Notes: a model not told the origin generated them from the letters alone. A stretch of DNA of 30,271 bases from an uncultured Candidatus Peribacteria bacterium (GCA_964633455.1 CAZWFZ010000001.1:1-30271), one strand, 5' to 3'; positions 1,907 to 11,105 are shown, counted from the stretch's first letter. Numbers and translations: made by a program.

Positions 1907-3022
1907 TTATTTGACGAAGTGAGAAAATGTAGTTCGCTGTGCCTGAGGTAATCGGCGACGTCCATGTTCCAAAAGGTAATCAGAAGGAACTAGATGTTGT
2001 ATACAACGACGTCCAAGGAGCGAAAGAATAAGACTACCAAAAAGTGCTTTGACAAATACAAATGGAGTAAGCCAAGATGAAGCTTGCTGAAGATATCCCC
2101 CCAGCGAAGAGGCAGAAATAAGTTGTTGTTCGCTAGTTACTTGTGCAGGGAAAGGATGAAACAGTCCTACCTCATGATACATCACTCGTTCCTGGGGAGC
2201 ACGCGGAACTAGAGCCAGCGGAACCCAACCAATGAGTCTTTGGACACCGTGTCGCCAAATGAGATCAGGCTGAAACTGCTTTTGGGTATGCATCAAACGG
2301 AGAGCAAAAGGAATATTGCAATAACTACCCAGGAAATTGAACCATTTTTTCCACCCACTAGGTCTCTCACAAGAGCCAACCAACTGTACCTCAAAACCAT
2401 GATCTATCAGAAGATGATACACATTTTGAAGATACTGTTCCACGCCTCCTAGTGGACAAATATAGTCAGAAACGAGCAAAATACGGCCAGATTGTTTCCC
2501 GAGCAATGATTTGAAAGCACTCATCCACACCTGTTCTGTATACTTATTTGCAATTGTGCGTGCGTCTGTGCGGCGATCCGGCAGCTCTCCATTGGTCATT
2601 TTGGTAAGGAGAGTAAGCATTTGTTCGGTATAGGATCACTGCTCATCCAACTGATACTCTGGGAAAATAAAGGGCATAATACCTCCTTTTGCAAATCCTA
2701 CTACCGGCACACCTAGTTGGAGCGACTCCAATGCACTCATCCCAAACGTTTCCAAGAAAAGAGACGGCATGAGGGTAATATCAGCCTGTTGTCGGGTATA
2801 ATTTATAGCTTCTTTGGGTTGAAACCCATGGAAAGTAACGAAAGGAAGGGAAGGAAGCACTGCTTCCAGCTCGGGCTGCAAAGCACCGGATCAAAAAATA
2901 TGACAATGGACACTACTCACCAAGGGGGATTGTTTGAGTGCTTGCAGGAGTTCCAAGACCAAATGAAAACCCTTCTCCTTAGTCAGTCTCCCCACAAAGA
3001 TCATCGTCACCTGTTGCGTCAT
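1907..3022 (-). CDS. GT4-family (GT-B) glycosyltransferase with swapped domain order, ~371 aa
   Basis: Track ORFs 2636-2881 and 1907-2620 share a frame and join through TGA. N-half has IFVGRLTKEKG, HIFGSG and ETFGMSALE (EX7E); C-half has RILLVSDYICPLGGVEQY. Alternative starts at 3004 or 3034. Confidence 0.85.
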
Positions 3023-3698
3023 GTATTGTACCATTATAAAAACCCACCACAAATTCTCCTTTGCTTGGGATAGTTCATTTCTTCACTTGTTCCAAAATAA
3101 CGGCTACATCTCCGCACGCAAGTTGCTCATGGAGTTTGGAGAGTTCTCTTGCAATCAAGACACGGCCGGTAAATCATAAGGTAATCATTTCTTCAAGAAG
3201 TTTTTGTATTCTATGAACGGATTCATACAAAAAGACCGGGATCGGCGAAGCAATTATTTCACGTTGCATAGTTTGTTTTCCTTTTTTCTTGGGGAGAAAA
3301 CCGTAAAAGGCGAAACGATTGGTAGGAAATCGTGCTGCCACAACCGCTGGCACAAGAGCATTTGTTCCTGGTAGGACGCTAAAAGGTATATTATTTTCTC
3401 GACATAATCTAATAATTGTTTTACCAGGATCTGACAATCCTGGTGTGCCCGCGTCAGAAAGTAAACCTGCGTCTTGGGTGCGTAATAAATTGATGAAATT
3501 ATCCAATTGGTGTGGAGAGGTGAAACTCGTTAAAGAAAAAAATTGTTTTCCCTCGTGTGGTATGTTATATAAATGAAAAAGTCTCTTGGCAGTTCTGGTA
3601 TCTTCGCAGAAAAAAAGCGACAAAGAGGATAAGAAACCTTTGGCTCTGATAGTGATATCTTCGAGGTTACCTACAGGGGTAGGAAGGACATACAACAT
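2979..3698 (-). CDS. rsmI: 16S rRNA (cytidine1402-2'-O)-methyltransferase RsmI, 239 aa
   Basis: MLYVLPTPVGNLEDIT, CEDTR, SDAGTPGLSDPG, FYGFLP, YESVHR. Read-through of TGA 3174-3176 gives RELSKLHEQ and KGEFVV; TAA at 2979-2981. Confidence 0.95.
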
Positions 3699-7200: not shown

Positions 7201-8739
7201 CTAGCCTACAAATAAGCTTTTAGCCCTATATTGCGTAGCTTCCGCAAGATGTTGTCTAGACACTACTGGACATGTATCAATATCGGCTATTGTTCTCGCA
7301 ACTTTGATAAGTTTATGGGCAACTCTGGGCGAGAGATGATACAAGGAAACATATTCACTAATGAATTGTCTGGCTTCATGAGATAATGGTATATATGATG
7401 CTATATGTTTGGCTGGGATAGTTGCATTGGTACTAATTGGTGTGCCTGCAAATCTATTAGACTGCTCTTGTCGACAGTTGAGGATCATCTCTTGAAAATT
7501 GGGAGAGGAAGTGGTTGTTTGGGGATCTAGAATAGTATCGATAGACTGTCTTGGAATCTCTACGATAAGATCAAATCTATCAAGCAATGGTCAGGAAATT
7601 CTCTGTTGATAGTTTTTGATATCATTGAGTGAACATACACACGGTTTCTCTCTGTCTTTATAATATCCACAACGACACGGGTTCATAGCTGCCACAAACA
7701 TCACTTGTGCAGGATAGGTGACAGATCCATGGGCACGAGAAATCACGATAGATTTGTCTTCGAGTGGTTGTCTCAATACCTCAAGTACTTCTCTCGGAAA
7801 CTCTGGTAACTCATCAAAAAACAGTACTCCCAAATGTGCTAGACTCACCTCTCCCGGCACAAGTTGTTGTCCACCACCGACGATTGCTACTTTGGAAGCC
7901 GTATGATGGACACTTCTAAAAGGCCTTTTGGTAATCAGTGGATGCTCTTGGGAAAGTAGTCATGCCACTGAGTATATCTGACTTATTTCTAGTATTTGTG
8001 GAAAGGTAAGGGGTGGCAAGAGACCAGGTAGTGCTTTGGCTAACAAAGATTTACCGCTTCCTGGGGGACCAACCAGGAGAATGTTGTGCATACCAGCTGC
8101 AGCTATGGTGAGTGCTCTTTTGGCTAGCAAATGACCAGAGATAGCATGAAAGTCCTCGTTAGGAGCTAACGAAGAAGTCAGGAGATGATCTGGTGAGAGA
8201 ATAGGGTGAGGTTGAAGTTTATGTAGCGAAGCACAATGATCGATGATCTGCTGAAAATGAGCAACGGGAAAAAGCGTAATATCTGGAATATAAGCAAGTT
8301 CATGGATATTTTCTTGGGGTACGACAAAATGGGTGTATCCTTGTTTCTTGGCGCTGATCAACGAAGGAAGTAATCATGCCACATATTTGATAGTGCCCTC
8401 TAGACCTAACTCGCCAAAGAACAACCAATTACCAAACCCAGTGTGATAGGTGGTTTCTTCTCTCACCAAATGAAGGAGTGCTACCGCAATAGGTAAATCA
8501 TATCTCGTCCCAATTTTTTTCATCTCACTGGGTGCAAGATTGACTACTAGTCTGCGAGGTGGGAGAGAGAGACAACAATTCTTGAAGGTGGATCTTATCC
8601 TCTCTTTGGCTTCTTTGATAGCCAAATCAGGGAGTCCAATTATCTCTATTTTGGGTAATCCATTACTTTGATCAGCCTCAACCGTCAGCTCATATCACTG
8701 CAGTCACCATGGTGCAAAAGTTTTGATGCAAACGCTCAT
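7201..8739 (-). CDS. comM: ComM/YifB Mg-chelatase-like AAA+ ATPase, 512 aa
   Basis: Four same-frame fragments joined by [74 protein letters not shown][TGA]PLLDRFD. Confidence 0.96.
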
Positions 8740-8902: not shown

Positions 8903-10210
8903 TTATGAAAAGAGATTGACGAGAACATTCACAAATACGTATGCTACGATCGCTATACCAATACCAATCACCGCGTAGAGTATCAAATCTTGTGCCGTTT
9001 TGAGTGACTTAGCATCTCCTCTAGAAGTCATCAAAAGGAAGCCACCATACAAGAGTACAAGGAATGCTACTAGTCCAATAATAATCCACAACCACTCATT
9101 GATCAACCTAAATATATTGAAAAAACTCTGATCATCTTCTGATGGAGTTAAAATATCCGTATTGGTAACAATATCCCTCTTCCATTCATGGGGAATTTCT
9201 ATTCTCAGATCTCCCCTATTTTTGTCTGTGCCATTAGTTGCACCAGCTGTAGGATTTCCAGCCGTTGCTGTACTTCACGCTGTCGCGGTTCATGCTGTCG
9301 CGGTTCATGCCGTTGCCGTTCAAGCAGTCGCGGTGCCTGCTGTTGCCGTTCATGCTGTTGCTGTGCCTGCTGTCGCTGTTCACGCCGTAGCTGTTCAGGC
9401 TGTCACCGTTCACGCTGTCGCTGTGCCTGCCGTTGCTGTTCACGCTGTCGCTGTTCACGCTGTCGCTGTGCCTGCTGTCGCTGTTCACGCTGTTGCCGTT
9501 CACGCTGTTGCTGTGCCTGCCGTTGCAGTTCATGCTGTCGCTGTTCACGCTGTCGCTGTGCCTGCTGTCGCGGTTCAAGCCGTTGCTGTGCCTGCCGTCG
9601 CTGTGCCTGCTGTCGCGGTTCAAGCCGTTGCTGTGCCTGCCGTCGCTGTGCCTGCTGTCGCGGTTCAAGCCGTTGCTGTGCCTGCCGTCGCCGTTCATGC
9701 TGTTGATCCTCCTCCATTTGAAGCTCAACCTCCACCAGGATTGGGGTCTTGACCATCTTCTATGCCGTCATTATCATCATCTGGGTCTTGATCGTCCGTG
9801 ATCCCATCACAATCTATATCATTGGGAGGTATACCACCTGCACCATACAGACAATATGCAAATTTCACCAATGTTTTATTAAGTTCTTCATCGAGCACAA
9901 TAAATCTTCCTGTCCCGCCGAAAGGACTAGGAACAAGTTGTGGTGGATAGAATCCTAATGCATGGGTGCCTTGTACAGGTCACAAAATAGTTAATCCCGA
10001 ATAGGGTGTGTACCGAAACAAGTTAAAGAAAAGTTGAGAAACAGGAGTCACATCATCCCAAAGCCCACCGTATGCTGCCAAATCTGCTGTATATGACTGT
10101 GCTTGCTCTATATAAAAAAGCGTAGGACCTGTATACACCGGCGCATTACTTGCGGAAGCAACTGAAAGGGAGCTTACCAAAGAGAGAAATCAGACAATCC
10201 AAAGTTTCAT
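8903..10210 (-). CDS. Secreted/membrane protein: signal peptide, Asp-rich DxDxDG motif, (TATAG)29 repeat, C-terminal TrbC/VirB2-like pilin domain, 435 aa
   Basis: Frame read continuously from ATG 10210 to TAA 8903-8905 with TGA=Gly. MKLWIVGFLSLVSSLSVASA start; DIDCDGITDDQDPDDDNDGIEDGQDPNP; two C-terminal hydrophobic helices around GGFLLMTSRGDAKSLKTAQ. Confidence 0.85.
9272..9703 (-). repeat. 15-bp coding tandem repeat, about 29 units (Thr-Ala-Thr-Ala-Gly)
   Basis: Gly codon every 15 nt from 9695-9697 to 9275-9277 (18 TGA, 11 GGC). Exact 45-bp higher-order copies at 9571-9615 and 9616-9660. Confidence 0.95.
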
Positions 10211-10697: not shown

Positions 10698-11105
10698 TTA
10701 AAGATTTTGGAGCAATGCATCTGCCTCAGCTTCTTCTTTTTCTTTGGTTGCCGCCTCCTGTTTTTTGATACCTTGAGTCACATCCAAATATCATTCATTA
10801 TCTCGTTGTTGTATATATTTATTTTCAATATCTGTCTTCTTTTGATTGTACTTCTGCTCTATTTCCTGTAATTTTTCTTGTTCTTTGGTTAAAATTCCAT
10901 TCAGTTTAGCTAACTGCTGTTCATTCATCAATGGCAATAAATTAAACCAATTCTGCTTTTCCTCATGAGAATTGAGTGATTGTGAACGCAAGATCAGCGT
11001 AATAATATCTGGCATTTTTTCAATAAACTCAACCGGAATAGTATATCCTTTTGCGGTTTCTTGGACATCTGGAGGGAGAGTGAGTAGTGCTGTTGTGAGA
11101 TCCAT
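10698..11105 (-). CDS. Hypothetical coiled-coil-rich protein, 135 aa
   Basis: Track ORF extends through TGA 10791-10793 to TAA 10698-10700; EEKQNWFNLLPLMNEQQLAKL. Confidence 0.8.

Follow-up and report, generated by a model that had tools for sequence, protein, structure and literature searches.

VirB2-like pilin arrays are known in Patescibacteria, and in Southlakia epibionticum, the one species tested, these pilins are essential; a pilus formed by such arrays has been proposed, not seen (PMC10633639, PMC12102498, PMC12857230). One survey (PMC12102498) searched for VirB2 as a small protein and states that its Patescibacteria data set yielded no adhesins, and a term search of that paper returns no mention of pilin fusions. 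Here we describe pilin B (P0001), an extended VirB2-like pilin encoded on the minus strand (8903..10210) of a 30,271-nt stretch of DNA (CAZWFZ010000001.1:1-30271 of assembly GCA_964633455.1), which we call the window. The source is an ultrasmall bacterium of the class Gracilibacteria whose habitat is wastewater and activated sludge; its genome assembly comprises 1.22 Mb in 187 contigs and is 88% complete. We consider it probable (roughly 0.6) that pilin B is a surface-display subunit of the VirB2-like (T4SS_pilin) type, in which a membrane-anchored, slippage-prone stalk spans the cell wall and carries a head that contacts the outside.

With the arrays of S. epibionticum and Nanosynbacter lyticus, pilin B shares the PF18895 family, a signal peptide and a two-helix hairpin, and the genetic setting is likewise one of tandem divergent paralogs on the chromosome of an ultrasmall host-dependent lineage with a monoderm-type VirB4. 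The pilins described from those arrays are small, whereas pilin B has an N-terminal part of ~340 residues that is predicted to be extracellular. Patescibacterial arrays are recognized by tandem pilin paralogs encoded near virB4; here the tandem pair is present, and VirB4 lies on a separate contig (C38) of an assembly split into 187 contigs. The TrbC/VirB2 conjugative pilins of diderms (PF04956) also have a hairpin of two hydrophobic helices, a short basic loop and a leader peptide, but in pilin B there is no sign of cyclization or of a long leader, and the organism is presumably a monoderm. In overall layout, pilin B resembles the staphylococcal ClfA/Sdr adhesins, in which Ser-Asp dipeptide repeats span the wall. 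In both, a low-complexity repeat of variable length separates the anchor from a head located toward the N-terminus, and the (GD)n and (GE)n arrays found in some pilin B orthologs are especially similar. However, the anchor of pilin B is a membrane hairpin instead of LPXTG/sortase, and the two systems are non-homologous.

Gene model and genetic code

Under NCBI table 25 (TGA = Gly), region 8903-10210 (-) is one open reading frame (ORF) of 435 aa without internal stops, terminated by the codon at 8903-8905; under table 11 the same frame splits into pieces of at most 67 aa. The gene contains 21 TGA codons, 18 of which fall within the repeat (G172-G312), so the masking of the true frame by 18 TGA codons that had been proposed from the sequence alone is borne out by the comparison of the two tables. 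We compared four versions of the gene: that of the window, that of a second genome of the genus (G046), and those on a JGI contig (L010) and an ENA contig (L025). All four come from short-read assemblies, which may miscount repeats. The four proteins are 89-97% identical, and the codon differences between them are mostly synonymous. Between the window and G046, there are 52 synonymous and 7 non-synonymous codon differences in the N-terminal part and 29 and 4, respectively, in the C-terminal part; a further ortholog comparison gave 67 synonymous and 22 non-synonymous differences. In alignment columns that contain TGA, the other codons are GGN in 49 of 52 cases and TCA in the remaining 3. Within the repeat itself, Gly at position 5 of the unit is encoded by TGA 17 times and by GGC 11 times, and the 19 distinct 15-nt units encode only two peptide units in the pilin B frame, compared to 4-19 in the other five frames, which argues that this frame is the real one.

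The predominance of synonymous differences and the exchange between TGA and GGN indicate that the gene is real, that TGA encodes Gly and that purifying selection acts in the code-25 frame. The sequence-only reading had taken the alternation of TGA and GGC as internal confirmation of UGA = Gly and the synonymous variation among units as a mark of selection on the peptide; the ortholog comparison agrees with it on both counts. Furthermore, ComM, CNNM, ComEC, TyrRS and other proteins of the window give full-length Pfam matches only if TGA is read through, and each of the 5 TGA codons in the ComM gene falls on Gly or Ala in an alignment to a solved ComM. The pilin B gene provides a clean internal demonstration of TGA = Gly, with the recoded codon being used to build simple repeats.

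Domain organization of pilin B

Pilin B begins with a Sec-type signal peptide (aa 1-20; 10151..10210 (-)), assigned by reading the sequence: it has Lys2, a hydrophobic core and Ala-Ser-Ala before the predicted cleavage site, and AlphaFold models a helix over residues 2-18. The signal peptide is followed by an orphan head domain of ~110 aa (aa 21-128; 9827..10150 (-)), which is genus-restricted and matches no family, and by two tandem calcium-loop motifs of the DxDxDG type (aa 131-156; 9743..9820 (-)), read from the sequence as D-x-D-x-D-G-I-x-D-x-Q-D-P. Both motifs are invariant in the four orthologs, as is the Gly/Ser/Asn hinge that comes next (aa 157-169; 9704..9742 (-)). Cys120 of the head and Cys134, in the calcium-loop segment next to it, likewise occur in all four. 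The hinge leads into a low-complexity stalk rich in Thr, Ala and Gly (aa 170-323; 9242..9703 (-)) with a repeat core at 9275-9694. Between the stalk and the C-terminal hairpin lies a pre-hairpin segment (aa 324-372; 9095..9241 (-)), which starts with G-D-L-R-I-E-I-P and aligns to pilin B orthologs across the order.

The VirB2-like helical hairpin (8906..9094 (-)) consists of two transmembrane helices (TM1, aa 373-394, and TM2, aa 409-434) joined by a basic loop (aa 395-408). The 14 residues of the loop are net positive, with Arg, Lys and Lys against two Asp. Residues 362-430 match PF18895 (T4SS_pilin) with 33.5 bits (cut-off 26.6), and the C-terminal part alone reaches 36.2 bits. In the single-sequence AlphaFold model, the hairpin helices (358-396 and 403-434; predicted local distance difference test, pLDDT, 66-84) are the sole confidently modeled part. 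The family match and the modeled hairpin thus substantiate the earlier proposal of a pilin-like two-helix C-terminus. Of the two profiles that had been suggested for checking it, however, only T4SS_pilin matched; the Pfam search of P0001 gave no match to PF04956 (TrbC/VirB2). There is also a weak match to the pilin-like family of the Mycoplasma integrative and conjugative element. At 435 aa, pilin B exceeds the size of stand-alone T4SS_pilin proteins (~100-180 aa).

The head was found by six-frame search in 2 of 141 genomes of the order, one of the two being the window's own; these are two of the three species of the genus. An exhaustive phmmer search of 1.8 billion representatives returned only the head's own cluster, apart from Asp-rich TSP3-like hits, and there was no Pfam or NCBIfam match. 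Neither a word-index search nor the ESM Atlas provided a relative beyond the genus, the best score in the latter (0.81) being a lead only. A match to P0008 in the homolog search was rejected as a repeat artefact. A thioredoxin-like head, considered by eye on the basis of a P-x-F-I-V-L-D-like strand and a CxxC in the ortholog from G101, was dropped, as it has no Pfam support and BLAST and hhalign fail to align the heads.

The calcium-loop region had been described as thrombospondin type 3 (TSP3)-like. Indeed, the DxDxDGxxDxxD motif is present in two tandem copies, a feature shared with TSP3 repeats (PF02412, PF18884), and the phmmer hits of the region fall on proteins with TSP_3 or TSP3_bac repeats. 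However, the segment scores only 11.1 bits against Pfam TSP_3 (E 0.32; cut-off 25). Judged by this score, the likeness is at the motif level only and does not extend to family membership: there are just two loops, and calcium binding is putative. The DNA of these Asp-rich loops (9755-9787) also matches high-depth contigs of other organisms in two sequencing runs (X3 and X5; depth up to 155). It is common to unrelated abundant taxa and can mislead read mapping.

The repeat array

The array comprises 28 contiguous T[A/V]TAG units (aa 173-312; nt 9275-9694), with one extra TATAG after a Ser and partial units flanking it on both sides; the previously given number of 29 Thr-Ala-Thr-Ala-Gly repeats is therefore a fair count. 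The 15-nt unit varies at third codon positions, at one second position and at positions 1 and 3 of the Gly codon. A codon listing of the units confirms that the variation is nearly all synonymous, the sole exception being the Ala-to-Val change (GCG to GTG) at 9404-9406. Tandem Repeats Finder reports periods of 30 and 45 nt. Exact 45-bp copies had also been noticed, and they are recovered as an exact 95-nt self-match at a 45-nt shift, equivalent to about three copies at roughly 9549-9691. The depth of the Logan unitig covering 9617-9691 is roughly double that of the flanking sequence, consistent with additional copies at this site. No TATAG-like arrays were found elsewhere in the 1.22-Mb genome.

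The four orthologs have 28, 29, 24 and 15 contiguous units, lending support, within the limits of short-read assemblies, to the earlier notion of a stalk of variable length. Together, the differing unit numbers and the exact 45-bp copies point to an array that evolves by gain and loss of units, with ongoing slippage. No indels or joints were seen in Logan contigs at the array, a result that is uninformative on repeat polymorphism, since the contigs break inside the array.

Origin of the extended pilin by insertion

For the analysis of pilin B orthologs, the last 101 residues were used as the query, and the alignments cover query positions 1-100. Orthologs were detected in 132 of the 141 genomes of the order. 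Among the best 30 loci, read under code 25, 22 encode proteins of 120-140 aa, in which the signal peptide is directly followed by an [I/L]-R-[I/V]-x-[I/V]-P motif and then by the hairpin. Because this motif comes immediately after the signal peptide in short positional orthologs, the comparison indicates that the window protein is a short pilin B which has gained about 300 residues between its signal peptide and the ancestral mature start. By the same alignment, the pre-hairpin segment beginning with G-D-L-R-I-E-I-P is the start of the ancestral mature pilin B, as the signal-peptidase site of the short orthologs lies immediately before the motif. Lined up from short to long, the positional orthologs reveal the site and the manner of the fusion: new sequence entered a short pilin just behind its signal peptide and made a long surface protein of it.

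The remaining 8 of the best 30 loci encode long forms, two of them in the window's genus and six in two other genera. The pilin B of G101 (405 aa) has a head followed by (GD)n and uses TGA as Gly. That of G076 (518 aa; L066:3448-5001 (-), equal to L049:1501-3054) has a head, several DxDxDG loops and (GE)n, and most of its 80 TGA codons reside within the (Gly-Glu)n arrays. In both genomes, the recoded stop is heavily used for simple hexanucleotide repeats. In G077 (366-396 aa; synteny unverified), the repeats pass Pfam TSP_3 with 27.7 bits against a cut-off of 25, unlike those of the window. The longest protein, from G079 (910 aa; L064:659-3388 (-)), has a head of ~300 aa, TSP3-like loops, a 13-residue Thr/Gly/Ser repeat and a Cys-rich segment. 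Many of its loops contain Cys (D-x-D-G-x-C-D-R-N-C-D), the 13-residue repeat is present in 8 copies, there is an acidic tract, and the Cys-rich segment is placed before the hairpin. Two further proteins are cut by contig ends, one with (GGTDE)n (G078) and the other with TSP3_bac-like repeats (G075).

The order pilin A, pilin B, ComM seen in the window is kept in G079, G101 and G076, the contig of G079 ending just upstream of pilin A. The heads of the long forms cannot be aligned to each other or to the window head by either BLAST or hhalign; what the long forms have in common are calcium loops, a simple-sequence spacer and the conserved boundary motif. Related genera have the same design, built from other heads and other repeats. 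PF18895 hairpins are also found elsewhere in the class, both in proteins of 300 to >1300 aa and with several in a single protein. Two to four T4SS_pilin hairpins follow one another in single open frames of 350-470 aa in G000 (C56:1662-2810 (+)) and at L026-L028, the latter from other families of the class. These multi-hairpin frames are pilin arrays fused into one polypeptide.

Proposed role of pilin B

According to the surface-display model, pilin B would be exported by Sec and its signal peptide cleaved off. The hairpin would reside in the cytoplasmic membrane with the basic loop inside and both ends outside; it may serve as an anchor only, or may in addition assemble with pilin A, so that the display protein is possibly pilus-borne. 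Given this topology, the entire insertion, and everything else N-terminal of the hairpin, would be located outside the cell. The uncharged, hydroxyl-rich Thr/Ala/Gly array may form a flexible and perhaps glycosylated spacer that takes the head past the wall and a putative S-layer; by our estimate, it could reach roughly 12 nm as a coil and up to about 50 nm if extended. The calcium loops, if they bind calcium, would stiffen the neck, the head would make contact with an external target, plausibly a cell of a host or prey, and repeat slippage would tune the reach. That other genera have (GD)n, (GE)n or (GGTDE)n in this position suggests that what counts in the array is its length and composition, not a particular fold.

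An adhesin on a pilus that serves host attachment was already envisaged in the sequence-only reading. We infer a possible adhesin role from where the head is placed, from its confinement to a single genus and from the dependence of the group on hosts (PMC8080830, PMC11452946); the location on a pilus and the part in host attachment are likewise conjectural. A broader extension, in which pilin B of this order of predatory or epibiotic ultrasmall bacteria is a modular scaffold that combines a conserved hairpin with swappable genus-specific heads, calcium-loop necks and slippage-variable simple-sequence stalks, the heads and stalks together deciding on hosts or prey, is offered tentatively and should be regarded as possible at best. 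In such a scaffold, TGA-Gly codons would make slippage of the stalk length easy, as they allow very simple repeats.

Several observations weigh against the surface-display model. The head has neither relatives nor a confident fold (pLDDT 38.7 in an AlphaFold run with a 4-sequence alignment), and its designation as a contact domain is a guess from its position. The membrane topology follows from the positive-inside rule and knowledge of VirB2 and not from a dedicated predictor. A look for expression data turned up no listed RNA run, and the variation in stalk length could partly be an assembly artefact, given that Logan contigs end within the array. The window encodes no genes of a secretion machine. 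Finally, G045, a 95% complete genome of the same genus, has no match to the head, the 135-aa protein encoded upstream of the pilins or the pilin B hairpin, and the module may accordingly be dispensable, or else unassembled in G045 (lost, or situated in an assembly gap caused by the repeats).

The surface-display model yields a testable hypothesis, namely, that a pilin hairpin serves as a platform for presenting contact domains, and it would provide candidate host-specificity determinants in a group with cultivated relatives. To what is known, the locus adds a code-25 example, a near-perfect pentapeptide stalk and the graded set of short and long positional orthologs.

Gene neighborhood and secretion machinery

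The conserved module that includes pilin B starts with a gene for a 135-aa helical protein without Pfam or NCBIfam matches (10698..11105 (-)). It is followed by pilin A (P0002; 10235..10681 (-)), a short VirB2-like pilin of about 148 aa encoded 24 nt upstream of pilin B; its start is likely the Met that aligns with the 148-aa ortholog from G046. Pilin A scores 23.3 bits against PF18895 and 18.6 bits against TrbC (PF04956; cut-off 27.9), below the cut-off in both cases. Directly downstream of pilin B lies the gene for ComM, an Mg-chelatase-like helicase (7201..8739 (-); Pfam Mg_chelatase, 299.7 bits), for which the top hit in solved structures is a ComM (E 2.7e-98); the gene serves as a synteny marker and as a control for the genetic code. 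The order 135-aa gene, pilin A, pilin B, ComM is the same in L010 and G046. More broadly, orthologs of the 135-aa gene are located upstream of pilin A in G046, G001, G004, G101 and G076, pilin A adjoins pilin B in G046, L010, G001, G004, G079, G101 and G076, and ComM also adjoins pilin B in L010, G079, G101 and G076. By consensus matching only, there is a promoter-like site upstream of the module (11357-11329 (-)) and no convincing terminator.

In the complete genomes G001 and G004, from two other genera, a PilT-like ATPase of the type IV pilus retraction type is followed by the 135-aa protein, pilin A and a pilin B of the short kind (121-130 aa). There (G001, L022:1635-4174; G004, L023:4201-6846), the module lies directly downstream of the PilT-like ATPase and beside neither VirB4 nor ComM, which prompts the question of what machine serves such VirB2-like proteins. 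The window's genome encodes, on contig C38, a VirB4 ATPase of the monoderm CD1110 family (335.6 bits; cut-off 325), and also type IV pilus ATPases; no match to TrbL/VirB6 was found in the 88%-complete assembly. PF18895 has nine matches in eight open frames of this genome, mostly in tandem pairs, and six of the matches are above the cut-off. Apart from P0001, these frames measure 127-207 aa from stop to stop, with one multi-hairpin frame of 383 aa. In the window, 7-10 kb from pilin B, there are genes for a pyruvyltransferase and for a 1257-aa protein with sub-threshold SLH matches.

Alternative explanations

The strongest competitor of the surface-display model, although in our view rather unlikely, is that pilin B is a minor or tip subunit of a pilus of the type IV secretion system (T4SS) type. 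Pilin A would be the major subunit, pilin B would be incorporated through its hairpin into a filament built by the VirB4 machine, whose gene lies at another site of the genome, and the heads would decorate or cap the filament. The outward-facing pilin termini of solved conjugative pili fit this arrangement. The conservation of the pilin A/pilin B pair across genera and the CD1110-family VirB4 speak in its favor, as does the proposal that the pilin arrays of Patescibacteria form a pilus (PMC12857230). Nevertheless, a pilus of this family has never been seen, the pilin pair is apart from virB4 in this assembly and stands next to a PilT-like ATPase in G001 and G004, and an N-terminal extension of 340 residues on each subunit would crowd the filament. 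Alternatively, pilin B might be a pro-protein that is cut at the G-D-L-R-I-E-I-P boundary, releasing a soluble head-stalk and leaving an ordinary short pilin B. The boundary motif is conserved in all long forms, and in short orthologs the signal-peptidase site immediately precedes it. We regard this scenario as improbable, since no second cleavage site can be recognized, the module has no gene for a dedicated protease, and a long spacer is hard to explain in a released protein.

It had also been suggested that the Thr-x-Thr repeat forms a regular beta-solenoid, such as an ice-binding surface, instead of a flexible spacer. The Thr alternation and a compositional resemblance to the (Ala-Ala-Thr)n antifreeze glycoproteins are all that favors such a fold. 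The single-sequence AlphaFold model has the array as a coil lacking secondary structure (pLDDT about 30), and at E values up to 1 no pentapeptide-repeat or antifreeze family of Pfam matches it. This is weak negative evidence, but it leaves the suggestion unsupported; moreover, other genera put (GD)n, (GE)n or (GGTDE)n in place of the array, and the organism lives in wastewater and activated sludge. We therefore consider a solenoid very improbable. Even less credible is a non-functional locus, whether as a mis-assembled repeat or with an Ala-Val-rich plus-strand ORF (9162-9752 (+)) as the real product. That ORF is open under code 11 and encodes only 4 peptide units, yet it is restricted to the repeat, and the window uses code 25 throughout. 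By contrast, the minus-strand frame runs into conserved N- and C-terminal domains, is under purifying selection and recurs in four independent assemblies, so that, judging by these comparisons, this explanation is largely refuted.

Further observations

Elsewhere in the window, an ORF for a GT4 glycosyltransferase (1907-3052 (-)) has its Pfam domains in swapped order, with Glycos_transf_1 at residues 14-126 and a weak Glyco_transf_4 match at 202-280.

A second departure from the standard code may affect the head of pilin B. Codon 66 (10013-10015) reads CGG in the window, and the three orthologs all have TGG there. Throughout the syntenic 21 kb shared by the window and L010, exchanges of CGA and CGG with TGG greatly outnumber those with other Arg codons: CGA in the window is paired with TGG in L010 13 times, and the reverse is seen 8 times, in a count that includes some spurious overlapping frames. 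Reassignment of CGA/CGG to Trp was reportedly proposed for Absconditabacterales by Shulgina and Eddy in 2021. The pattern observed here fits such a reassignment, and residue 66 of pilin B may be Trp.

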